A stretch of 41,186 bases of DNA from positions 1 to 41,186 of the IMG/VR virus record IMGVR_UViG_3300024921_000002; one strand, written 5' to 3'. Below the pieces are notes generated by a model. It saw only the letters and a program-made list of their open reading frames with translations, was not told the origin of the DNA and did no database searches. The stretch comes from a virus. This document shows positions 128 through 41,186 of this stretch, in pieces; within the stretch, counting starts at the first letter, position 1, and every line of letters begins with the position of its first letter. The translations under genes and the position numbers were made by a program.

Positions 128-325
128 GAATGATTGCTTAAATATCAACGGGTAACAGGTTATAACAAAATTTCTCTAAAATGCTTTAAGAATGCGGAAT
201 CCCGGCATTATTTGATTTCCTTCCAATATCAAGCTATAACATATAATATCAAGTTGAGACGCGCTTTTTATGTACATAATTGAGTACATAAACTGCGTAT
301 TTTTTATTGCTTAGAAATTATGTAC
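29..325. promoter_or_regulatory. Cluster of GTACATA motifs upstream of int (candidate Int arm-type sites / int regulatory sites; attP region)
   Basis: GTACATA occurs at 29-35, 41-47, 272-278 and 284-290, and inverted (TATGTAC) at 319-325. TTGAGTACAT (280-289) and ATGTACTCAA (320-329) are exact reverse complements. The non-coding stretch 40933..41059 plus 1..339 is the only long gene-free segment next to int. Confidence 0.4.
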
Positions 326-339
326 TCAAGGCTGAAAAA

Positions 340-1554
340 ATGGCGATTACTGACGCATGGCTAAAGGCGATTAGCGGCAAGGGCAGGGACGTCCTTGCGG
401 AAAAAACAGACCGTGACGGCTTAAGCGCCAGGGTATCAAAAAAAGGCAAGATCGTATTCCAGTTGCGCTTTCGGCATGACGGCAGGCAGTCCAGGTTAGA
501 TCTCGGGACTTATCCGTTGATTACGTTAAAACAGGCTAGGGAGGAAGCCCTAAAGCTCAAGGCTGAGCTTGAAAAAGGTCATGATCCACGCATCATCAAA
601 AAGACTGATAAGCTCAAGAATATTGAAGTGTTAAGCTTGGAAGATGTTTTTGAGAAATGGTATGAGGCATACTGCATACACAATAAAAAGATTCATCGTC
701 AGATAAAGCGATCGTTCGAGATATATGTTTTTCCTGAGTTTGGAGGCATCCCTCCGGACAGAATATCAACCGATAACTGGGTAACGCTACTAGAAGGGGT
801 TAAGAAAAAGTACCCGGCAATCGCTGCTCGATTGCTGATAAATGCCAAACAGATGTTGTCGTGGGCAGTTCGTCGCAAGCTTGTTTCAAGTAATGAGATT
901 TTTCAGATCAGTGCAAAGGCGGATCTGAGTATTACAAAAAAGAAGAGCACTCGCTCACTTGATGACGAAGAAATCCGCATGTTGCTTATGGCGCTGGATG
1001 GGTCGAGGATGTCGGCAAAGAATCGCATGTTTGTGCGGTTATGCCTGGTCTATGGATGTCGAAATACCGAGCTAAGAGTGGCCAAGACGCGGTATTTAGA
1101 TTTCTCTAAAATGATTTGGACGACGCCGCCTGAAGATCACAAAACAGGCAAATTATCAGACAAACCCCTGATCAGGCCAATTACGCCATACACTAAACAG
1201 CTGTTTGAAGAGTGTATCTCCCTATCTGGCCCCAGTGAATACTTGTTCACTAATGAAGGCAGCGGCGAGGTCATGGGAGTTGGTGCGCCGCTTTCCCTGC
1301 CTTACAATGTCATGCAGTGGTTACGAAAGAACAAAGGCTATGAAATGGCGCACTGGTCGATTAAGGCGCTGAGAAAAACGGCAAGAACAAATTTTTCGAC
1401 GCTTACCCAACCGCATATAGCTGAAATTATGCTGGGTCATAAGCTACCCGGTGAATGGGAGGTTTATGACCAGCACCACTATTTAGTTGAGCAGGCGGGC
1501 TGCCTTATTAAGTGGGTAGAGCGACTAAATAGTATAGTTCAAGCTGATTCTTGA
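340..1554 (+). CDS. int: Tyrosine integrase, P4-type (DUF4102-like N-terminal arm-binding domain)
   Basis: Track ORF 307..1554 trimmed to the first ATG (AAGG 8 nt upstream). N-terminus: MAITDAWLK...LSARVSKKGKIVFQLRFRHDGRQSRLDLGTYP...LKQAREEALKLKAELEKGHDP. C-terminal core shows GCRNTELR, ALRKTARTNF and LGH...EVYDQHHY. Confidence 0.9.
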   Translation: MAITDAWLKAISGKGRDVLAEKTDRDGLSARVSKKGKIVFQLRFRHDGRQSRLDLGTYPLITLKQAREEALKLKAELEKGHDPRIIKKTDKLKNIEVLSLEDVFEKWYEAYCIHNKKIHRQIKRSFEIYVFPEFGGIPPDRISTDNWVTLLEGVKKKYPAIAARLLINAKQMLSWAVRRKLVSSNEIFQISAKADLSITKKKSTRSLDDEEIRMLLMALDGSRMSAKNRMFVRLCLVYGCRNTELRVAKTRYLDFSKMIWTTPPEDHKTGKLSDKPLIRPITPYTKQLFEECISLSGPSEYLFTNEGSGEVMGVGAPLSLPYNVMQWLRKNKGYEMAHWSIKALRKTARTNFSTLTQPHIAEIMLGHKLPGEWEVYDQHHYLVEQAGCLIKWVERLNSIVQADS

Positions 1555-1596
1555 TCGTGACGTTATACACCTAAATCGGTGCATTTCACTCATTAG

Positions 1597-1632
1597 CGCG
1601 ATATAGCCCCCTAAAAAGGTGTCTATATCGCG
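1597..1632. terminator. 10-bp perfect hairpin between convergent int and the last leftward gene
   Basis: cgcgatatag (1597-1606) pairs with ctatatcgcg (1623-1632) across a 16-nt loop. The right arm overlaps the last codons of ORF 1623..1874. Confidence 0.35.
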
Positions 1633-1874
1633 TTATGCGCTATCCTTTTTGTTGTCGGCGGATGAGGTTTTTTAAACTTAGTCCAATGCGTGACAATCTC
1701 GCCATCTTCAGTTTCCCACCCAACTGATGTTTTGCAATTTAACCGGGCAACAAAAACCTTGCCATCTCCATACACAAAAGTTTCTTCAAATCTATCTACC
1801 CAGTCGCCGCATAATGTCGGCCATTTTTCTACTTTTGGTAGCAGGTCGTTAGGATTTGTCCATGGCTTAAACAT
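1623..1874 (-). CDS. DUF551-like small phage protein
   Basis: 83 aa. The C-terminal ...GEIVTHWTKFKKPHPP resembles the DUF551 signature (..THWMPLPEPP). GGAG lies 8 nt upstream of the ATG. Confidence 0.5.
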   Translation of the reverse strand: MFKPWTNPNDLLPKVEKWPTLCGDWVDRFEETFVYGDGKVFVARLNCKTSVGWETEDGEIVTHWTKFKKPHPPTTKRIAHNAI

Positions 1875-1896
1875 TATTATCTCCGCTCATACACGC

Positions 1897-1980
1897 ATAA
1901 CCCGTAAATCAACGGGAACGCGGCCTCAATCTTTCGTTAAATTTCATTCGCGTCACCGCGTCCCGTTATTATTGCGTTAG
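1897..1980 (-). repeat. Structured intergenic palindrome, copy E8 (variant geometry)
   Basis: In mRNA sense: CTAAC (its TAA is the stop of ORF 1977..2225), spacer, AACGGGACGCGG ... CCGCGTTCCCGTT (one bulged T), spacer, GTTAT, then 22 nt to the ATG of ORF 1623..1874. Confidence 0.6.
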
Positions 1981-2225
1981 GCACTCAATATGTCGCCAAT
2001 CCTGGTTTTTCCGTCACCGCCGTATGGCAAACAGTTTACATCCCAACCATCCCGAAGATTAGATTCTGTTTTTATTTCGCCTCTTATGTCGAATTCAGGA
2101 TCGGGTGCCGCATCTTGAAGCCCTTCGACCCAATTTTCACTAGCCACATCATCGGCTTTATCGGCATCATCAGCACTAACAACAATTGTATATCTCACAG
2201 TTACTTCGACGTTATAAAGTGGCAT
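1977..2225 (-). CDS. Hypothetical acidic protein
   Basis: 82-aa ORF in the co-directional gene string. Its stop codon is embedded in the CTAAC box of E8. Confidence 0.5.
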   Translation of the reverse strand: MPLYNVEVTVRYTIVVSADDADKADDVASENWVEGLQDAAPDPEFDIRGEIKTESNLRDGWDVNCLPYGGDGKTRIGDILSA

Positions 2226-2247
2226 TATTTTTATCCTGTAATCAAGC

Positions 2248-2315
2248 CTAACAAGTCGGTCAAGCGGAAATTCGTTACGCTACGCTTCACTCATTCCGCT
2301 TACCTCGTGCGTTAT
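2248..2315 (-). repeat. Structured intergenic palindrome, copy E7
   Basis: In mRNA sense: ATAAC (its TAA is the stop of ORF 2312..2482) GCACGA GGTAAGCGGAA ... TTTCCGCTTgACC GACTT GTTAG(GC), then 22 nt to the ATG at 2225. The G is bulged. Confidence 0.65.
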
Positions 2316-2482
2316 GCACTCACTCTGCGCTTTTCATCTACGCACCCGGCTAACAGCAGCCGGAAACGCTTAGGGCGTTTTTTGTGCCAGTTCAGCAAGT
2401 TTTGCTCTGATTCCCCGCTGATTCTGACAAACTCGGCGAGGCTATCTAGCCCCGCCTTTTTGCATTGCTCTGATGGTGTCAT
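2312..2482 (-). CDS. Small (56 aa) putative DNA-binding protein, below the ORF-track length cutoff
   Basis: Hand translation: MTPSEQCKKAGLDSLAEFVRISGESEQNLLNWHKKRPKRFRLLLAGCVDEKRRVSA*. It is HTH-like, and its stop TAA lies in the ATAACGC box like its neighbours. The RBS is weak. Confidence 0.4.
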   Translation of the reverse strand: MTPSEQCKKAGLDSLAEFVRISGESEQNLLNWHKKRPKRFRLLLAGCVDEKRRVSA

Positions 2483-2498
2483 TAAATGTTTCTATCTT

Positions 2499-2855
2499 TT
2501 AAAAATTAATTCTTTCGTTGTACATTGTGCTGCAATATATTCTTCCTTTTGAGCCTGGTCGTTGAGTTAATCTATGTCCTGGTTTTACTTCAGTTTCGTT
2601 GTAAAATGTATTTGTTTCAAATCCAGGCATTTTTTTATCAAATAATTTGACCATATCAACTGATTCTAAAAACAAGTTTTCTATCTCTTCATTTCTGTTT
2701 ATCGCGTAACCGTAATACGTGTTTTTTAAATTTTTATCTATCAGAGTAAAGCAGTCGAGATTCATTGTTATTTCATATGCGCCTTGATTCATATTAAATT
2801 TAACAATTTTATCGATTAGTTTTTTTTCATTTTCTGTTAATTCTAATTTAGCCAT
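2499..2855 (-). CDS. Hypothetical protein, visibly A+T-rich orphan
   Basis: 118 aa. GGGAG lies 6 nt upstream of the ATG. Composition is clearly A+T-richer than the flanks. No motif recognised. Confidence 0.55.
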   Translation of the reverse strand: MAKLELTENEKKLIDKIVKFNMNQGAYEITMNLDCFTLIDKNLKNTYYGYAINRNEEIENLFLESVDMVKLFDKKMPGFETNTFYNETEVKPGHRLTQRPGSKGRIYCSTMYNERINF

Positions 2856-2871
2856 TTTCTACTCCCAACTT

Positions 2872-2890
2872 GTTAGGCGGGCTGCCTAAC
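2872..2890. repeat. Perfect hairpin GTTAGGC-gggct-GCCTAAC
   Basis: Read directly. The 7-bp arms match the GTTRRRY / RYYYAAC consensus pair. It lies between a TATAAT box (minus strand, 2905..2900) and the ATG at 2855. Confidence 0.6.
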
Positions 2891-3017
2891 TTGCTTACTA
2901 TTATACACAAATATATTGTGTTATACGCAATTATTTTGTGTAAGCGTAAAATAGGGCATAACACAACGCTCGTGCGGGACGCCAGCGATAAAGCCGCTGT
3001 CGCCCCACAGCTAAGCG

Positions 3018-3224
3018 TTATACCGCCGACTCGTTCATGTGAGATTTACGCGCTTTTGCGTGACCTTTTTGTACACATTTAGGACAGTAATCGAGATCGC
3101 CGTAATTTTTCCAGCCGCTGTCTTTAAGCTCCGCTTTAAGTCGTGCTTTTGTATATCCGGGGATGTCTGTATATTCGGTCATGCCGCACGCATCGCATGT
3201 ATACTGCTGCCAGGTTTCAATCAT
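3018..3224 (-). CDS. Small zinc-ribbon protein
   Basis: Trimmed from the TTG at 3242 to the ATG at 3224 (MIETWQQYTCDACG...CPKC). Two CxxC pairs. The stop is embedded in GTATAACGC. Confidence 0.55.
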   Translation of the reverse strand: MIETWQQYTCDACGMTEYTDIPGYTKARLKAELKDSGWKNYGDLDYCPKCVQKGHAKARKSHMNESAV

Positions 3225-3226
3225 GT

Positions 3227-3309
3227 ATAACTCTATGGTCAAATGGGACGCGCCTAAAGTTCAGCGCGTTGTTCGGTTTCGTCTTGCACGCTTTTTACCA
3301 GGGCGTTAT
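3227..3309 (-). repeat. Structured intergenic palindrome, copy E1
   Basis: Plus strand: ATAAC TCTAT GGTcAAA ... TTTACC AGGGC GTTAT. The TAA of ORF 3306.. lies within the right box, and the left box ends 2 nt from the ATG at 3224. Confidence 0.6.
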
Positions 3310-3482
3310 GCCCGTCTATTCCACCATTTCACCGCCTCATCATCTGTTAAGTGCTTCGGCGTCTCCGCTCCGCATCGGCAGGCAATACCATCACCTGCGT
3401 ACCCCATACAAAACCTCGGCGTTTTATCGGGCTGTTTTCCGCAAAACGGGCATGGTTTAAATTCGGTTTTTGGCTGCTCCAT
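3306..3482 (-). CDS. Lar-family restriction-alleviation-like protein
   Basis: MEQPKTEFKPCPFCG...CRCG...TDDEAVKWWNRRA shows the Lar family pattern (N-terminal CPFCG, C-terminal ..AWNRRA). The start was chosen at the third ATG, with GGAG 9 nt upstream. Confidence 0.65.
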   Translation of the reverse strand: MEQPKTEFKPCPFCGKQPDKTPRFCMGYAGDGIACRCGAETPKHLTDDEAVKWWNRRA

Positions 3483-3498
3483 AGTGTGCATCTCCAGC

Positions 3499-3581
3499 AT
3501 AACAAATCATTCAACGTGAGCCGGTTAGAGCTCACGGTATTGTTCAGCCGCGCGGTGCGGCCACGTTAATTCAAGCGTTAT
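3499..3581 (-). repeat. Structured intergenic palindrome, copy E2
   Basis: Plus strand: ATAAC AAATC ATTcAACGTGaGCC ... GGCCACGTTAAT TCAAGC GTTAT. The stop of ORF 3578.. lies in the right box. Confidence 0.65.
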
Positions 3582-3787
3582 ACGCTTACAGTGCGCGCCA
3601 TTATTCCGTCCCTTACCCATCGTCGCACGTATAGTTCACATCCTGTAGTCAGGCCGACGCCATTCGCCATGCCTAAATGCGTTGCTTTCTTTTTGCATCC
3701 ACAATGGCAACGCCTTCGGCTTCGTGCGTCAACTTTTTTCATATATCTCTGATGCTCGGTTGCTGAGCCGTATTGCCCAAAACTCAT
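3578..3787 (-). CDS. Small Cys-rich hypothetical protein
   Basis: 69 aa (..RRRCHCGCKKKATH..TGC..). The stop lies in GTATAACGC. Confidence 0.5.
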   Translation of the reverse strand: MSFGQYGSATEHQRYMKKVDARSRRRCHCGCKKKATHLGMANGVGLTTGCELYVRRWVRDGIMARTVSV

Positions 3788-3803
3788 AAATTATTCACAG
3801 CCT

Positions 3804-3897
3804 ATAACTCTTAGTTCAAGTGCGACAAGCCGACATTCGCGGCTTGCGTGTTTTACTCATTCTGTCGTGGGCGGCTTGCGCCTTAACACGGCGTTAT
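3804..3897 (-). repeat. Structured intergenic palindrome, copy E3
   Basis: Plus strand: ATAAC TCTTA GTTcAAGtGCGaCAAGCCG ... CGGCTTGCGCCTTAAC ACGGC GTTAT. The stop of ORF 3894.. lies in the right box. The left box is 16 nt from the ATG at 3787. Confidence 0.7.
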
Positions 3898-4634
3898 ATT
3901 GCAAGTTCAAGTTGCTCATTACCAATAGCCCACAAAGCAGAGCTATTATTACATTCAATACGCTCTGCAATTACCGCAGCTCGTTGTGATGATGTTGGCG
4001 GGATATAAGACCCGAACCGGCTTAAACTGCCACTATTTACAGCGGCGTTCGTGCTGTCAGCTGATGCTAATGGGAGTCGCGTAAAAATATCAGGGTCAAG
4101 CATTCTCAAGCCATGTAATTTACATTTTGGCCTTCCATATTGATCACAGCAAACACTTATAACTATCGACATCCTGCGCCACCATTTTGATGTTCCAGGG
4201 CTTTTGTATTCACCAGAACTACCTAGTGCAACCGTCTGAAAGTTGTCAATCAAATATTCAAGCCATTCAAAACTTTCGTGCATGTGCCACACCGGAACGC
4301 CTTTTGCTCTTCCGCCGATCCTGATCCACTTCATTACCCAGTCAACATTGTCGGCTTCAGTTCCATCAATGATGTCGGGAATTAATGCCCAGTCAAACCC
4401 TGGATGCTGATAAATCGAATGTACCCACTTCCAATAGGCATCAAAATCAATTTCCCCTTTTCCAGCTTTCCAGTGGCTAAAAGCGCCGTTGTCCAATACA
4501 AAACTCTGGCAGTATTCGAGAACCGCCCCAACATCATCTTTTCTTCCGAATGGAATTAATGCGTGTCGCCCGACAAGGAATTTTGCCGTATCTTGTCGCG
4601 TACCACCTATCGGCGTGCCGTGATAATGTATCAT
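3894..4634 (-). CDS. DpdA / tRNA-guanine-transglycosylase-like protein (candidate 7-deazaguanine DNA transglycosylase)
   Basis: 246 aa. An ordered motif series resembles TGT/DpdA: FVLDNGAFS (cf. DSGAF/DSGGF), ALIPDIIDG, VPVWHM, VALGSSG, KLHGLRML and SADSTNAA. Recognition is by eye only. Confidence 0.5.
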   Translation of the reverse strand: MIHYHGTPIGGTRQDTAKFLVGRHALIPFGRKDDVGAVLEYCQSFVLDNGAFSHWKAGKGEIDFDAYWKWVHSIYQHPGFDWALIPDIIDGTEADNVDWVMKWIRIGGRAKGVPVWHMHESFEWLEYLIDNFQTVALGSSGEYKSPGTSKWWRRMSIVISVCCDQYGRPKCKLHGLRMLDPDIFTRLPLASADSTNAAVNSGSLSRFGSYIPPTSSQRAAVIAERIECNNSSALWAIGNEQLELAI

Positions 4635-4656
4635 CTAAAATCACCCAATTTGCAAT

Positions 4657-4745
4657 ATAACTCTTAGTTCAAGCGGACAAGCCGCCATTCGATTGTTTCT
4701 GTTTTAAAGGTTCCGTGCGCGGCTTTCCGCTTAACATAGCGTTAT
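4657..4745 (-). repeat. Structured intergenic palindrome, copy E4
   Basis: Plus strand: ATAAC TCTTA GTTcAAGCGGAcAAGCCGC ... GCGGCTTTCCGCTTAAC ATAGC GTTAT. This is a 17-bp stem with two bulged C. The stop of ORF 4742.. lies in the right box. Confidence 0.7.
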
Positions 4746-4930
4746 ACGGTGTCTGTCTGCCGCATCACCCATTCATGATTTATCGGCTGGTATCCACCAT
4801 CTCGCTGTATCGCAATCCGGCTTCCGCAGTCTACGCACTCATGATATGTAGTATGGTTGATGTCTTTTACAAGTTTCCAGCGGCACCAAAACCAGCACCG
4901 GTTGCTTGTTTCGAGTTTGATCTTTTTCAT
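4742..4930 (-). CDS. Small Cys-containing hypothetical protein
   Basis: Trimmed to MKKIKLETSNRCWFWCRW...CVDCGSR (62 aa). The stop lies in GTATAACGC. Confidence 0.5.
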   Translation of the reverse strand: MKKIKLETSNRCWFWCRWKLVKDINHTTYHECVDCGSRIAIQRDGGYQPINHEWVMRQTDTV

Positions 4931-4941
4931 GGTTATACCGT

Positions 4942-5057
4942 ATAACTCTCTGGTCAAGGCGACCCGCCGCCCTAAGCGCGGTTCGCAGGTTGTGTTTTTC
5001 AAAGTTCTTCATGCTCGGGGGCTTCCGCTAGCGGCGGTCGCCTTACCGTGGCGTTAT
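4942..5057 (-). repeat. Structured intergenic palindrome, copy E5
   Basis: Plus strand: ATAAC TCTCT GGTcAAGGCGAcCCGCCGC ... GCGGCGGTCGCCTTACC GTGGC GTTAT. It has two bulged C at the same positions as in E4. Confidence 0.7.
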
Positions 5058-5092
5058 ACCCTGGCTTTTTGGTGACAATTGGCTCGCCAAAA

Positions 5093-5212
5093 TCACGCAT
5101 AAGTTGGCCTTTTACTCTCAGTTTTGCTCAGCGCTTTTATTTCATTCATGAGCACATCTGCCATGTACTCTATCGCGACAATCTGTGCATCTACAATTTC
5201 ATTTTCAGTCAT
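5093..5212 (-). CDS. 39-aa ORF (MTENEIVDAQIVAIEYMADVLMNEIKALSKTESKRPTYA*)
   Basis: Hand translation. The ATG lies 3 nt after element E6. It ends at a TGA, and the same frame continues 12 sense codons to the TAA embedded in the ATAAC box of E5 (5054-5056). Confidence 0.3.
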   Translation of the reverse strand: MTENEIVDAQIVAIEYMADVLMNEIKALSKTESKRPTYA

Positions 5213-5215
5213 GTG

Positions 5216-5300
5216 AACAACTCTTAGTTCAAAGGCGACGCCGTTCAGCGTCGCGGTATTGCTTAAAGTTCAGTGTCGGCTCGCTTTAACACGGCGTTGC
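5216..5300 (-). repeat. Structured intergenic palindrome, copy E6 (degenerate boxes ACAAC / GTTGC)
   Basis: Plus strand: ACAAC TCTTA GTTcAAAG... ...CTTTAAC ACGGC GTTGC. The T-to-C change in the left box is matched by an A-to-G change in the right box. Confidence 0.55.
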
Positions 5301-5314
5301 CAGACATTTTGTGA

Positions 5315-5572
5315 TCATACCGCTCCTTGATTATCTTCCCAGGCGGTAATAGCTTCTATTGCCCACCTGTTTTGACTTCCCTTGCCTTTAAATTTTGGCG
5401 GTGGCAATGGGTTTTCTTCACGGGTCATCCAGCGCCATAGCGTCATTTTCGATACTTTGAAGCGCCGCATCAAATCGTTTGTTGTCCAGTATCCTGATGT
5501 TTTAATTGCTGTTCTGGATCTTGTTAGTTCAAATGGTTCATCAGCGGTTAATATATTAGGTGATGGTTTCAT
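5315..5572 (-). CDS. AlpA/excisionase-family DNA-binding protein
   Basis: ..TTNDLMRRFKVSKMTLWRWMTREENPLPPPKFKGKGSQNRWAIEAITAWE matches the AlpA/Xis HTH_17 pattern. The start was chosen at M10 of the track ORF; 5599 is the alternative. Confidence 0.7.
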   Translation of the reverse strand: MKPSPNILTADEPFELTRSRTAIKTSGYWTTNDLMRRFKVSKMTLWRWMTREENPLPPPKFKGKGSQNRWAIEAITAWEDNQGAV

Positions 5573-5576
5573 ATCT

Positions 5577-5780
5577 TCAAACCTTTGATGGCTGGGCAAT
5601 CAATAATCTCGCTGCATCAGCTTTATCGCAGCAAAATTGGCAGCGCTTTGAGTTGTTGCCAGGAGTTATCTTACCCAGCTGTTCTATTGGTCGGTCATGG
5701 CCGCAAGACCGGCAATGAAAATATTTTTTCAGCGGTTGTTTTATTGAGATTTCGGCGGTTGTCGAATTTGGGTTCATCAC
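5577..5780 (-). CDS. Small zinc-ribbon protein
   Basis: 67 aa with CRSCGH...CQFCC. An ATGA overlap joins it to the stop of the methyltransferase gene. Confidence 0.5.
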   Translation of the reverse strand: MMNPNSTTAEISIKQPLKKYFHCRSCGHDRPIEQLGKITPGNNSKRCQFCCDKADAARLLIAQPSKV

Positions 5781-7435
5781 GCCGCATCCTGTTCAAGGTT
5801 TTCGGATGGTTGCGGGTAGTTGGCCCGACACAAGGCTTCCATTAAATCCGGAGGAACACTATTGCCGCATAGCCTAACTTGGGTGGACTTGGTAAATTTT
5901 CTGCCGTCATGTCCATGTTCTATGCCGTAATCGGCTGGGAATCCCTGTGCCCTGAATAGCTCGGCCGGTTGCAGCATTCGTAATCCAATGTCGACAATGA
6001 CGTGCGGCTGGTTATGGATCATGACGGTAACCAGTGCCATGCGGTCTTTGGTGGTGATGGTGGACATCGGCTCTTTAATATTGCCCAGTTGTCCGCCTTC
6101 GCTGTAATAGCGCATTAGGAAGGCAGCAACCTTTAACGCTCCTTCCTGATGTTCCGGCGTTAATGTGCATTCGATCAAGCCGAGGCGGTTTTCTGTGGTG
6201 ATAGTCGCAACCGGGTCATGCATTGATCTTGATCGGTTTGATTCGTCGGTGTAGTAGCTGGAAATAAAGGCCGATACGACAGCCGTTTTCCCGGCGCCTG
6301 ATGTCATTATTGTTGGTGCCGGTTCAGATACTGGCTGGCCGATGCTGTTGCCAAATTGTCTTGATAAATATGCCATTACGGTGCCGTGATGTTCTCCGCC
6401 GGCGCTGATGGTTCGTAGCGGTTCTTTAATATCTCGCCCATCACAGTGGTTGCGTAGGTGGACAAGATGGGCGGCTTTAACAAGCTTAGGCAGTCCAAGG
6501 GCGAACTCACCACCTTTAGTTGCTGAGGTTATCGTGCGTAAAGGCTCGGCTGTCGAGTGGGCAGTTACCGAGCCATTGAAGTGCGCGATCGGCACGATGA
6601 ATGGGTCGGCGCTTTCCAGTACGTATCGGCTCAGGCCTTTGGCGATCCGGCGCAGGGTGGCATCGGCCAGCGGCTTTTTACGCTCGAAAATGCTGTTGAT
6701 CGGGAACGTGAAATCAATGCACTCGGCTGCGCTGCGCCATTTTTGCTGGCCTTTATCGGGTGCTTTGAAGTGGGTAGGTATCGGCCATTGGATTGGCTGT
6801 CCGTCCCGCCGGGCGATCATGAATAAACGCTCGCGGGTGGTAGGTGCGCCAAAGTCAGCAGCGCATAGGGTTTTATCTTCTACAGTGTAGCCCAGTGCCC
6901 GTAAGGCTGAGCAAAACCGCTGCCATGTTTGCCCGGCACGTTTACGGTCCGGAATAAGGTGTTGCTGCTGCACAGGCACTCGCTCACCTGGCGCTGATAC
7001 GCTGCCGTCGAGCTTGATTACCCGTCCGGTAGTTTTATCGCGCTTGGCGACCAGCGGTCCCCATTTTAGTATTTGGGTGACGTTTTCAAGGCTGATGACA
7101 TCAGGCAAGACTTGCCCGGCCCAGCGATAGCCTACCCAAGCTAATCCACGCAGTTTTTTACTGCGCGGTTGTCCGCCAGCGGCTTGGCTGTGATGGGTAC
7201 AGTCGGGCGACAGGTGTAACCAGCCGACGGGGCGGCCTTGGGTTGCGCCTTTTGGGCAAACTTCATAGACATCGGCGATAAAATGCCGGGTGTGCTTGTG
7301 GTTGGCCCTGTGCATTGATAGCGCATCATCGTTGTGGTTGATGGCGATGTCGGGATGTCGGCCCGTGGCTTGGAAAATCCCGGTGCTGACACCGCCGCCG
7401 CCGGCGAATATATCGACAATGAGTTTATTTTTCAT
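5777..7435 (-). CDS. DNA (cytosine-5) methyltransferase with enlarged, internally repetitive target-recognition region
   Basis: Trimmed to MKNKLIVDIFAGGGG (motif I). SPDCTHHSQA is the motif IV Cys, ISLENV is motif VI, TTRERLFMIA is motif VIII and GNSVPP is motif X. Five (E/D)PxxTI(T/S/M) repeats lie between motifs VIII and IX. Confidence 0.85.
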   Translation of the reverse strand: MKNKLIVDIFAGGGGVSTGIFQATGRHPDIAINHNDDALSMHRANHKHTRHFIADVYEVCPKGATQGRPVGWLHLSPDCTHHSQAAGGQPRSKKLRGLAWVGYRWAGQVLPDVISLENVTQILKWGPLVAKRDKTTGRVIKLDGSVSAPGERVPVQQQHLIPDRKRAGQTWQRFCSALRALGYTVEDKTLCAADFGAPTTRERLFMIARRDGQPIQWPIPTHFKAPDKGQQKWRSAAECIDFTFPINSIFERKKPLADATLRRIAKGLSRYVLESADPFIVPIAHFNGSVTAHSTAEPLRTITSATKGGEFALGLPKLVKAAHLVHLRNHCDGRDIKEPLRTISAGGEHHGTVMAYLSRQFGNSIGQPVSEPAPTIMTSGAGKTAVVSAFISSYYTDESNRSRSMHDPVATITTENRLGLIECTLTPEHQEGALKVAAFLMRYYSEGGQLGNIKEPMSTITTKDRMALVTVMIHNQPHVIVDIGLRMLQPAELFRAQGFPADYGIEHGHDGRKFTKSTQVRLCGNSVPPDLMEALCRANYPQPSENLEQDAA

Positions 7436-7607
7436 TATTGCGGCTCTCTTTCTCAGAACTAATGATGCGGAATCTCCGCTCATCCAGATCTAGCCCCAGT
7501 GGGGATCGGTCGCCAGTGCAATAAATAAAAGTCTTAGGCATCGACGTCACATTTTCTGGGAGCGGTAGTATGTCTTCAATAATTAGCCGTTGTGATTTTC
7601 CGTCCAT
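7425..7607 (-). CDS. Hypothetical 60-aa protein
   Basis: The ORF fills the gap between the muramidase and methyltransferase genes, and its start abuts the muramidase stop. No motif recognised. Confidence 0.3.
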   Translation of the reverse strand: MDGKSQRLIIEDILPLPENVTSMPKTFIYCTGDRSPLGLDLDERRFRIISSEKESRNNEK

Positions 7608-8161
7608 TACACTATAACCTCTCTGAATGATTCTGCGCGAGCAAACCAGCCATTTTTAAAAGCTGCTTGTGTTGGGTCGGTATTAATGATTTCCTGATAG
7701 TAATGCAGGCGACGGTCGACGATGTTGTTTATAAAATGTTTACCAAGCTCTGTAACAGCACGGGTTGTCGCTGTAATGGTTTTTACGCCGATAATTCCAT
7801 CCGGCGAAGATTGGCTATAAGAGGCCGAAACTAATGCAGTTTGTAAGATTTTTACGGAGCCTCTACGTCCATGATTTACGGCCATGTCGAGCATGATGGG
7901 CTGTATCAGCGTAGGTAAACTGATGATATTGGGCCGGACGTAATACAGGGTATAGTAGATTTTTTCAGCCAGAGCGGGGGTTACGGCTTTTATTTCCGCT
8001 ATGGTGACATCCATTGGTATGTTGGATGATGGTCGTCTAAAATACTCGGCGTAACTCTTGGCGGTGATGCCGTATTGTGTCGGACCGCCTTTATCAGCAG
8101 GGTGGTTAACATAGCCGCCTTCTTTCGCGATGATGGCGGCGATGATTTGTTTTATGGTCAT
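7607..8161 (-). CDS. GH108-family muramidase with C-terminal PG_binding_3-like domain (endolysin candidate)
   Basis: N-terminal IIAKEGGYVNHPADKGGPTQYGIT is the GH108 signature with the catalytic EGGY. The C-terminus carries RRLHYYQEI...FKNGWFARAESF. Confidence 0.8.
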   Translation of the reverse strand: MTIKQIIAAIIAKEGGYVNHPADKGGPTQYGITAKSYAEYFRRPSSNIPMDVTIAEIKAVTPALAEKIYYTLYYVRPNIISLPTLIQPIMLDMAVNHGRRGSVKILQTALVSASYSQSSPDGIIGVKTITATTRAVTELGKHFINNIVDRRLHYYQEIINTDPTQAAFKNGWFARAESFREVIV

Positions 8162-8412
8162 AGTTTTACTTCCAAGTTGTCGATAGCTTGTTTAAGTTGT
8201 TTAATCGTTTTTATGGTCCATATAATTTCCTGATCATCATCCCTCGTTACTGCATCACAGGGTGGCACGCCGTTAGTGAGGCATCTGTCATGCTCGAATG
8301 CACAGCCACCGCACCCTGCCCCCATAATCGTGGTATCGTTTGCCGGAGCGGCAACATAATTAATCCCGTTTAGGCTAAATTCATGAACCGATCTTATATT
8401 TGCCGTTTTCAT
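8158..8412 (-). CDS. Hypothetical protein
   Basis: 84 aa, with a 4-nt ATGA-type overlap with the muramidase start. Cys-rich centre (GAGCGGCAFEHDRC..PPC). Confidence 0.5.
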   Translation of the reverse strand: MKTANIRSVHEFSLNGINYVAAPANDTTIMGAGCGGCAFEHDRCLTNGVPPCDAVTRDDDQEIIWTIKTIKQLKQAIDNLEVKL

Positions 8413-9237: not shown

Positions 9238-10167
9238 TTAATTGTCCGGCGTATGGGTTTTGACTTCGCCGCCGAACAGCTCAACCAGGCGAGGCAGGAA
9301 GTTGGCCAGTTCCAGCGACATGATCGAAAAATCGACATCGAACCGGTCGGCTTCGGATTCTGTTTCAGTCTCGGCTACTTGATCCTGTATCAGGTCAAGA
9401 AATTTCAGGCGTTTAATGGCCAGCTCGTCATCGATAACAAATGACAGGCGATCGGCCCAGGTTACGGCCAGCTTAAAAACGTGTTTGCCTGAATCCAGAT
9501 GATTTTTAATTTCCGGAAGGCTCAAGTCGTGGCGTTTGCAGCGGATAATGCCGCCTTCTTCTTCCGGTGCGCGTAGTTCGCATTCGTCATCAAGGGTGAT
9601 GTCATCCGGTGCCGGCGCTTCATCATCCAGCCAGCCGGTCATCACGCTAACAGGACGGTTTAAGGTGATCCGGTTAATCGGCGTGGCCGGTAATGAGCCA
9701 AGGCATTTACGCAAGCTGCTGAGCAAATCTTCGGCTTTATTCGCCGAGGCAGCATCAACAACCAGCCAGCCGCCTTTGGGGTCGATGTAGGCGTAAGTCT
9801 TGGTTTGGAAAGTAAACGCCCTGGGCAATAGCTCAAAGATCAGTTCGTCTTTAATGGCGATTCTTTCTTTTTTGCCTAACTTGCGGCCCTGTTGTTGTTC
9901 GGCTTCAAGAATCTTTTCCTGAGTCATTTCATTAACGACCATTGTGGGCAGGACTCTTTCTTCTTTTTGGCCGCACAGCATTAAAAAGCCGTTTGAACTA
10001 TGCACCAGCTGTTCCGATGATTTGCCTAGCGGTGATGTCCAGCCATAGGTGGACAGTTCGTGACTGCCGCAAGGGCTGAAAGCCATTGGCAACAGTTTTT
10101 GTTCAAGGTCTGGATCGACGGCGAAATCGCTGTTAAGTCGATAGATGTTTATATTTTTAAACCACAT
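9238..10167 (-). CDS. rdgC: RdgC-like recombination-associated protein
   Basis: MWFKNINIYRL...MAFSPCGSHE..YGW..P.., ...ERVLP..VV, LLPRAF and KAEDLLSSLRKCLGSLP are collinear with E. coli RdgC (MLWFKNLMVYRL...MAFTPCGSQD...LLPRAF...KKAEDTLALLRKSLGSLP). Confidence 0.85.
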   Translation of the reverse strand: MWFKNINIYRLNSDFAVDPDLEQKLLPMAFSPCGSHELSTYGWTSPLGKSSEQLVHSSNGFLMLCGQKEERVLPTMVVNEMTQEKILEAEQQQGRKLGKKERIAIKDELIFELLPRAFTFQTKTYAYIDPKGGWLVVDAASANKAEDLLSSLRKCLGSLPATPINRITLNRPVSVMTGWLDDEAPAPDDITLDDECELRAPEEEGGIIRCKRHDLSLPEIKNHLDSGKHVFKLAVTWADRLSFVIDDELAIKRLKFLDLIQDQVAETETESEADRFDVDFSIMSLELANFLPRLVELFGGEVKTHTPDN

Positions 10168-41059: not shown

Positions 41060-41186
41060 CCTGCAATGCAGGTAAATTTACAATTAAGTACATATTCGAG
41101 TACATAAACTGAATGAACGATTATTTAAATTCCATACAAGCTAAGGAAACAAAGAGACGCAGGACTTTTGCTATCATCTCCCACCC
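41060..41186. repeat. Terminal direct repeat, copy B (identical to 1..127)
   Basis: Read directly from the sequence. Confidence 0.9.

Follow-up and report, generated by a model that had tools for sequence, protein, structure and literature searches.

The array and its setting

The DNA analysed here (hereafter the window, 41,186 nt, IMG/VR record IMGVR_UViG_3300024921_000002) represents the complete genome of a temperate phage, circular and about 41,059 bp in length. The early-left operon occupies the minus strand between about 15.3 kb and 1.6 kb, where it ends, and the structural genes come next on the plus strand. At the far end of this operon, between an alpA/xis-like gene (5315-5572) and the integrase gene int, small open reading frames (ORFs) are separated by imperfect palindromes. 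This region very probably represents nine integron-type attC sites without an integron integrase (i.e., a cluster of attC sites lacking an integron integrase, CALIN), bounding about ten cassettes. As the term is used in PMC9892861, a CALIN requires two or more neighbouring attC sites of one orientation, set apart by one or a few ORFs, with no intI close by. Nine co-oriented sites were found here within 3.4 kb, with one or two ORFs between neighbours and no TIGR02249 protein.

The sites, with scores from covariance model R1 (see below), and the junction box at the start of the first cassette are as follows.

1632-1638, plus strand: R'-type junction box GTTATGC, start of the first cassette, exact complement of a1 R''
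1895-1982, plus strand: attC a1, R1 34.4 bits, E 1e-5; R'' GCATAAC, R' GTTAGGC
2246-2317, plus strand: attC a2, R1 40.7 bits, E 4e-7; R'' GCCTAAC, R' GTTATGC
2956-3023, plus strand: attC a3, 60-nt copy, R1 39.0 bits, E 1e-6
3225-3311, plus strand: attC a4, R1 30.6 bits, E 7e-5
3497-3583, plus strand: attC a5, R1 39.7 bits, E 7e-7
3802-3899, plus strand: attC a6, R1 36.8 bits, E 3e-6
4655-4747, plus strand: attC a7, 'type A', R1 38.9 bits on this strand, 20.8 bits on the minus strand
4940-5059, plus strand: attC a8, long 112-nt type, R1 33.2 bits, E 2e-5
5215-5302, plus strand: attC a9, last site, boxes CAAC/GTTG, R1 22.2 bits, E 5e-3; abuts the alpA-like gene

The ORFs of the cassettes are the following.

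1623-1874, minus strand: 83 aa, no family match
1977-2225, minus strand: 82 aa, stop codon TAA within the box
2312-2855, minus strand: a2-a3 unit with two ORFs, 56 aa (2312-2482) and 118 aa (2499-2855, low GC)
3018-3224, minus strand: 68 aa, CxxC motifs
3306-3500, minus strand: Lar-like restriction-alleviation protein (PF14354, 3.8e-7; phrog_599, 4e-10)
3578-3787, minus strand: 69 aa, phage protein family (phrog_28528, 2e-23)
3894-4634, minus strand: 246 aa, queuine tRNA-ribosyltransferase (DpdA-like) family by annotation (phrog_887, 2e-65)
4742-4930, minus strand: 62 aa, zinc-ribbon-like
5093-5212, minus strand: 39 aa

Geometry of the sites

Both strands of the window were scanned for the pattern AAC-N(4-7)-[3 bp]-1-nt bulge-[at least 3 bp]...[3 bp]-N(4-7)-GTT. 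The scan yielded nine elements, all within 1895-5302 (AAC...GTT 1899-5298), sharing a common geometry made of AAC, 5 nt, 3 bp, an extrahelical C on the 5' arm of the plus strand, a stem, 3 bp, 5-6 nt and GTT. This geometry was not found in the rest of the 41 kb, where only scattered minimal matches with other spacers or bulged bases occurred. An earlier sequence-only reading of the window, made by a model from the letters and a list of ORFs, had listed eight copies, and all eight exist and are among the nine. That list missed the copy at 2956-3023, though its stop codon (3018) was used, and the possible ninth copy proposed at 1562-1638 is no attC site, as it does not match R1 even at E<10.

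The AAC and GTT triplets were present in the boxes of all nine sites, which include the pairs GCCTAAC/GTTAGGC, GCATAAC/GTTATGC and GTATAAC/GTTATAC, for a published box consensus of RYYYAAC / GTTRRRY (PMC5027507). In 9/9 sites, as in 42 bacterial ones, the central spacer was 5 nt long on the '' side, its length on the ' side being 5 or 6 nt. Constrained folds of the minus strand displayed an R stem, a 5 x 5/6 internal loop and a G bulged 3 bp in on the 3' arm, again in 9/9. A second extrahelical base occurred in a1 (a T, 7 bp further in than the G), a6, a7 and a8, and tips were branched in a4, a5 and a9. The internal loop and the single bulged G after 3 bp described earlier therefore apply to every copy, while the second bulge, described as usual, was found in about 4/9.

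In mRNA sense, the box reads as the last codon, TAA and C (GCCTAAC, GCATAAC, GTATAAC, ATATAAC). The TAA within the box was confirmed as the stop codon of the seven ORFs ending at 1977, 2312, 3018, 3306, 3578, 3894 and 4742, and the paired box change ACAAC/GTTG was located in the copy at 5219-5298. The proposed covariation of the stems also held on 60 phage-borne copies. In their alignment, which was fitted to the covariance model and thereby favours structure, 96% of the cells were paired (18-44% in slid controls), and 103 cells had changed on both sides, against 29 +/- 3.8 in shuffled alignments, with 0/500 shuffles reaching 103. The L-box triplets alternate between GTT/AAC, GGT/ACC, ATT/AAT and GCT/AGC.

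Match to integron attC sites

The plus-strand layout of the elements, e.g., TATAAC TCTTA GTTcAAGCGG...CCGCTTAAC ATAGC GTTATAC, is one that we take to be that of an attC top strand (attCaadA1/7-like). The signature TAAC-N5-GTTCAAG-N33-63-CTTAAC-N5-GTTA, scanned over one genome per GTDB species, matched at least 120 loci, most of them from classical integron hosts (Pseudomonas, Stutzerimonas, Aquipseudomonas, Vibrio, Colwellia, Lysobacterales and Treponema putidum). Several of these loci encoded a tyrosine recombinase of about 320-335 aa divergently upstream of the first site, three of which were TIGR02249 integron integrases (398-529 bits for a cut-off of 265).

Covariance model R1 was built from 42 dissimilar attC sites of these bacterial chromosomal integron arrays, with no phage sequence in it; its annotation covers both the R and L boxes as well as the first pairs of the stem. 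With filters off, R1 gave exactly nine matches in 41 kb, all on the plus strand, at 22-41 bits (E 4e-7 to 5e-3), while the next best score in the window was 14 bits. Used as a surrogate for the IntegronFinder attC model, R1 thus singled out the nine elements and nothing else. Rfam gave no match at gathering score in the window, and two chance-level matches (E 3.5 and 6.9) in 1400-5500 at E up to 10.

Junction boxes and related arrays

In integrons, the crossover is placed at G|TT of R'. What follows GTT is thus part of the next cassette, so that R'' of a given site should match R' of the previous site rather than its own. In the window, R''(n) was the perfect 7-nt complement of R'(n-1) in 6/8 cassettes, as with a2 R'' (GCCTAAC), the exact complement of a1 R' (GTTAGGC). 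Boxes matched the previous site rather than their own by 6 to 0 in the window, 15 to 6 in related phage arrays and 120 to 27 in bacterial integrons.

L006, a relative of this phage that occurs as a prophage in an isolate genome (IMG/VR), shares the 56-aa ORF, a3 (its a3-type site lies at 2181-2248), a4, the 246-aa gene and an a9-like site with the window, in a different arrangement. In a three-way alignment, L006 followed window a4 up to GCGTTAT and then the sequence downstream of window a6. Compared with L006, the window thus holds two extra cassettes (those of the Lar-like protein and the 69-aa ORF), and the switch falls inside GCGTTAT, the canonical G|TT crossover. The a9-like copy (80% identity) stands at the opposite end of the L006 array, first there and last in the window. 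The earlier proposal of an integron cassette organisation is supported both by R1, which matches all nine sites, and by such gain or loss of whole cassettes at G|TT among related phages.

Similarity between the window and about 25 other viral contigs was confined to attC bodies of 60-115 nt, with unrelated cargo on each side. R1 detected 3-7 sites per locus in several other viral contigs, and attC types of the window recurred on unrelated phage backbones with other cargo. Site a1 shares 95% identity with an attC of contig L012 that has other flanks, and a8 has counterparts of 86-88% identity in L021 and L034. The a7 type is the most widespread in other phage contigs, its 5' 20-mer being found in 39 metagenome contigs and many IMG/VR contigs. 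At the level of sequence, the matching of boxes across ORFs, the cassette indel in L006 and the site-confined similarity point to DNA recombination rather than to RNA structure.

Alternatively, the main function of the hairpins could be exerted at the level of the polycistronic mRNA, either in RNase III-type processing or in coupling stop and start codons by bringing the stop of one ORF close to the ribosome-binding site of the following one; their likeness to attC would then be convergent. The elements are indeed transcribed along with the ORFs and hold the stop codon within their 5' box. In mRNA sense, the spacer before GTTAT is purine-rich, TAAGA being its commonest form, and a GAG/AGG/GGA core was found in 47% of the 60 phage copies, which are not independent of each other, versus 10% of 42 bacterial attC sites. 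The spacer precedes the ATG by 6-8 nt at a4 and a9, and may be the cassette's own Shine-Dalgarno sequence. RNA-level functions had been judged to fit the array as well as recombination does, which the junctions contradict: a hairpin model predicts boxes matching within the hairpin, whereas they match across the ORF, in the pattern of recombination junctions. In addition, R1, trained on DNA recombination sites of integrons, matches all nine elements whereas Rfam does not, the indel with L006 falls at G|TT, and the mRNA-sense strand of a6 and a8 has C.A mismatches where the other strand has G:T pairs. Readings based on RNA only are disfavoured as the primary explanation, and we regard this one as very improbable. 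A secondary RNA layer is possible, and a Shine-Dalgarno sequence within the spacer is compatible with attC sites serving integron-type recombination.

A selfish palindrome of the type of miniature inverted-repeat transposable elements or repetitive extragenic palindromes was also considered and rejected, on the grounds of the stop codons within the boxes, the pairing of boxes across ORFs and the matches to an integron-trained model.

Cargo polarity

In the recombined bottom strand of attC, the AAC of R' is at the 5' side and the extrahelical bases are on the opposite arm, near L'' (PMC5027507). Because the extrahelical G of the window sites lies opposite the bottom-strand AAC, the minus strand is the attC bottom strand by this rule, and R1 agrees on the strand (38.9 bits on plus versus 20.8 bits on minus for a7). 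All cargo of the window is antisense to the canonical cassette polarity. This inversion had been overlooked in the sequence-only reading: the mRNA-sense strand is the attC bottom strand, and every ORF is antisense.

The coding strand was supported by several lines of evidence. Codon log-odds trained on the long genes of the phage favoured the minus-strand ORF in nearly every cassette of the window. Values were near zero on both strands for the short cassettes of the Lar-like protein and of the ORFs at 3578 and 4742, and the sole positive candidate on the plus strand lies within the 246-aa gene. Pfam and PHROG matches fell on minus-strand ORFs, and gene calls of the Joint Genome Institute (JGI) agree. 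With the same strand rule, cassettes of bacterial arrays were 146 sense and 18 antisense, and those of related phage arrays 25 antisense, 0 sense and 11 unclear. A tendency towards antisense cargo was also seen, with a weaker call, in some further viral arrays of high GC. The 56-aa ORF keeps an a3-type site upstream (mRNA sense) in both the window and L006 while its downstream site differs, and the downstream sites of the 246-aa gene also differ between the two genomes; both comparisons therefore fit the inverted polarity.

Published attC sites favour folding of the bottom strand through G:T pairs and purine skew, as a statistical tendency rather than a defining property (PMC5027507). As a test of polarity, strand energetics and skew were equivocal in the window, and contrary for a6 and a8. 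No published description of an inverted cargo polarity was found in the literature searched, the coverage of which was incomplete. Since the recombinogenic strand is here the non-template strand of the operon, transcription could, speculatively, favour its folding.

Which recombinase may act on the sites

Two genes flank the array.

307-1554, plus strand: phage integrase, P4 / Arm-DNA-bind_3 type (PF13356, PF22022, PF00589)
5315-5572, minus strand: alpA/xis-like helix-turn-helix gene (weak HTH_17 match), first non-cassette gene upstream in mRNA sense

The adjoining integrase is of P4 type and not an IntI, as had been stated from its sequence: it has an Arm-DNA-bind_3 N-terminus, no TIGR02249 match, and a BLASTP E-value of 0.63 versus IntI. 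A tblastn search with three IntI proteins gave no match in the window, and no IntI was found in 1.08 Mb of site-bearing viral and metagenome loci, which showed only distant Xer-like matches, in unrelated loci.

The sites could also be genuinely attC-like and yet be used by a recombinase encoded by the phage, either the adjacent integrase or an enzyme not recognised as such. In favour of this, the array begins right at the 3' end of int, the int stop codon is overlapped by an attC-like remnant (GTTCAAGC...CGTGAC GTTATAC, 1535-1568), and IntI was found on none of the contigs carrying these sites. However, the integrase, with its Arm-DNA-bind_3 N-terminal domain, shows no similarity to IntI, the arrays of L006 and other phages lack a nearby integrase and adjoin genes such as an Ogr-like gene, a primase or a terminase, and the extrahelical bases and spacer geometry read by IntI are kept in 9/9 sites. 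We consider the use of a phage enzyme very improbable. As the most economical inference, the sites are presumably recombined in trans by a host integron integrase.

Distribution beyond this phage

The generic attC signature is rare in IMG/VR, being found in 36 contigs among 2.9 million, some of which resembled fragments of bacterial integrons. The exact type A 20-mer had no match in GTDB genomes. The only close genomic copy was L192 (JAUXTO010000032.1, 1-2215), a 2.2-kb contig in a metagenome-assembled genome of 'Candidatus Gottesmanbacteria', in which six phage-type attC sites and small antisense ORFs take up nearly the whole sequence and which is probably a misbinned phage fragment.

Two further IMG/VR contigs, L205 and L223, carry Pseudomonas-type and Colwellia-type attC sites with sense-oriented cargo and look like pieces of bacterial chromosomal integrons classed as viral. 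In L012, an IS605 OrfB/TnpB-type gene (5773-6906; PF01385, PF07282) lies about 3 kb from the attC array.

A further alternative is that of a fossil array, in which a block of a bacterial integron would have been acquired once and inherited vertically, its sites being inactive. No integrase is present, both ends of the array look decayed (1535-1638 on one side; a9, with its CAAC/GTTG boxes and 22 bits, on the other), and strand energetics display no bottom-strand bias. Conversely, the full geometry is kept in 8/9 sites, relatives differ in order and content by whole cassettes, and attC types of the window also occur on unrelated phage backbones. The cargo is moreover of phage type (Lar, DpdA-like, PHROG families), co-oriented with the phage operon and antisense to the canonical polarity, which is not the appearance of a captured bacterial block. 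A fossil is the least probable of the alternatives considered, the CALIN with recombining sites being the preferred reading.

Cassette cargo

The cargo combines proteins of phage families with small proteins, several of which matched no family. The 246-aa protein shares 93% amino-acid identity with a truncated copy in L006; queuine tRNA-ribosyltransferase (DpdA-like) is only the family label of phrog_887, and a PDB sequence search with this protein gave no match. Homologues of the 56-aa ORF were found in L006, L030 and L061 (64-66% identity). Larger cassettes of related arrays encode N6/N4 DNA methylases (four arrays) and one RNA ligase.

The unit between a2 and a3 holds a segment of distinct composition (2499-2960, GC about 0.39), the 118-aa ORF of which has no family match; a palindromic, AT-rich sequence (2891-2955, repeats I5 and I6) comes before it. 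The segment may be a self-promoted moron inside the array, although the promoter scan gave nothing above chance. Just upstream of the 118-aa ORF in mRNA sense lies a mini hairpin (2872-2890, plus strand, GTTAGGC-GGGCT-GCCTAAC), in which an R'-type box is separated by 5 nt from the R''-type box complementary to it. This hairpin resembles a junction left empty or a pair of decayed half-sites, and similar inverted GTTRRRY pairs are found at the boundaries of phage CALINs described by Qi et al. (PMC9892861).

A 33-aa ORF (4999-5100, minus strand), called as a gene by JGI, overlaps the stop codon of the 39-aa cassette ORF (ATGCGTGA) and runs through most of a8. It may be spurious, or an ORF extending into the attC site.

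Array ends and phage genome

At the int end, the region 1555-1640 ends in GTTATGC, and a second GTTATAC sits 70 nt upstream. A perfect hairpin with 19-bp arms (1594-1635) runs directly into GTTATGC and has no R1 match. The stretch TAGTTCAAGC...CGTGAC GTTATAC (within 1535-1638, plus strand) overlaps the int stop codon and resembles a decayed attC site. This end of the array (1535-1638) could be a remnant site or an attI-like end.

The termini of the window overlap directly by 127 nt (1-127 and 41060-41186). A JGI metagenome contig (3300024971; L078), 100% identical to the window, bridges its end (tail gene D) to its start (int) across this overlap; the window is therefore a circular phage genome. 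An identical 4.1-kb piece of the window was recovered in a run from a different sample (L079). For attP, a position between tail gene D and int is expected.

A megablast search of the window gave no match among GenBank phages, and blastn matched the C5 methylase alone; a C5 DNA methylase is encoded just outside the array. By large terminase, the nearest cultured phage was Stenotrophomonas phage S1 (58% amino-acid identity), which carries no attC. No tRNA was found when looked for in the window. Promoter and terminator scans of 1400-8400 gave counts at or barely over shuffled expectation, and nothing specific to the array. Two further genes of the early-left operon, at a distance from the late genes, encode a GH108 lysozyme that carries a peptidoglycan-binding domain (7607-8161, minus strand) and an RdgC homologue of full length (9238-10167, minus strand; 1.7e-117).

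A model for the array and points against it

In the proposed mechanism, the minus strand, when single-stranded, would fold into an R box (AAC/GTT), a spacer of 5 x 5-6 nt, an L box with its extrahelical G and a variable tip. A host integron integrase acting in trans would cut 5'-AAC-3' between A and C, that is at G|TT on the plus strand, and recombination between attC sites would excise, insert and exchange whole cassettes between phages. A cassette would then read, in mRNA sense, as attC, a ribosome-binding site with a short leader, the ORF and TAA, with the stop codon as its last three bases and the cut falling directly after it. Expression of the array would proceed by read-through of the early-left transcript rather than from a Pc promoter. 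Tentatively, this can be extended to an uncultured phage family that possibly keeps its own pool of inverted counter-defence cassettes, shuffled across unrelated backbones by hijacked host IntI during infection or lysogeny.

Several observations weigh against the array being a set of attC sites recombined by an integron integrase. The junction signature and the switch at GCGTTAT are only indirect evidence of IntI cutting at AA|C. The cassette-level indel is documented by one close relative (L006) only. The sites used to train R1 were chosen with the same geometric scan, which makes its matches partly circular, although the arrays hosting those sites are genuine integrons. R' boxes such as GTTATGC and GTTATAC differ from GTTRRRY at one base. 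Summed minimum free energies were -242 on the plus strand and -241 on the minus strand, i.e., without an advantage for the bottom strand, and in a6 and a8 G:T pairs were more numerous on the plus strand. Finally, a tblastn search of 40 phage cassette proteins against about 120 bacterial integron loci found no homologue and thus gives no support to exchange with bacterial integrons.

Comparison with known systems

Integrons are generally viewed as a bacterial device. Like the sites of chromosomal and mobile integrons (attCaadA7, Vibrio cholerae repeats or VCR; Nivina et al. 2016, PMC5027507), those of the window combine AAC/GTT boxes, an L box of the GTTcAAG/CTTAAC type, a spacer of 5-6 nt and a variable tip, with an extrahelical G 3 bp from the spacer and, in some sites, another base 6-9 bp inward. 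The crossover at G|TT, with R''(n) matching R'(n-1), is that of integron arrays, and a single array combines different attC types, which is also the case in mobile integrons. Unlike bacterial integrons, the window has no intI and shows no recognisable attI or Pc promoter, its R' boxes often read GTTATRC, and its ORFs are antisense, so that it is the bottom-strand sequence that is present in the mRNA.

Elements of this kind are already known from phages. Qi et al. (2023, Front Microbiol) reported 3 complete integrons, one In0 element and 17 CALINs from 10,705 phage genomes, showed that IntI1 recombined 5/6 of the phage attC sites tested, and noted methylase cargo in phage CALINs, for which an anti-defence benefit was suggested (PMC9892861). 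The window array resembles these CALINs in having attC sites without IntI and small-ORF cassettes, DNA methyltransferases being part of the cargo there. It differs in its size, nine sites versus at least 2 per CALIN (about 2-3 in the arrays drawn), in its polarity, the orientation in TJE1 and PH101 being described as 'typical' (PMC9892861) while the cargo of the window is all antisense, and in belonging to a family of related arrays spread across many uncultured phages.

The present analysis adds a long array, with nine sites, in an uncultured phage whose genome is complete, its membership in a recurrent family of arrays sharing attC types across backbones, direct comparative evidence of cassette gain or loss at G|TT, and a uniformly inverted cargo polarity. 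If confirmed, these phages would offer attC sites that can be put to the test, small genes that are candidates for anti-defence functions, and a natural case of cassettes expressed against the canonical polarity, which bears on the control of orientation and of attC folding.

Integron cassettes have recently been described as banks of anti-phage defence genes in two preprints (bioRxiv 10.1101/2024.07.02.601686, 10.1101/2024.07.02.601719). Compared with those bacterial defence-gene integrons, the recombination platform is the same and is found here on the phage side, with a cargo that is counter-defence by family annotation only (Lar-like, DpdA-like, orphan DNA methylases). The presence of inverted, anti-restriction-type cargo on unrelated backbones suggests that phages swap counter-defence genes, probably with a host enzyme. 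If true, such arrays would be the phage-side mirror image of bacterial integrons acting as banks of defence genes.

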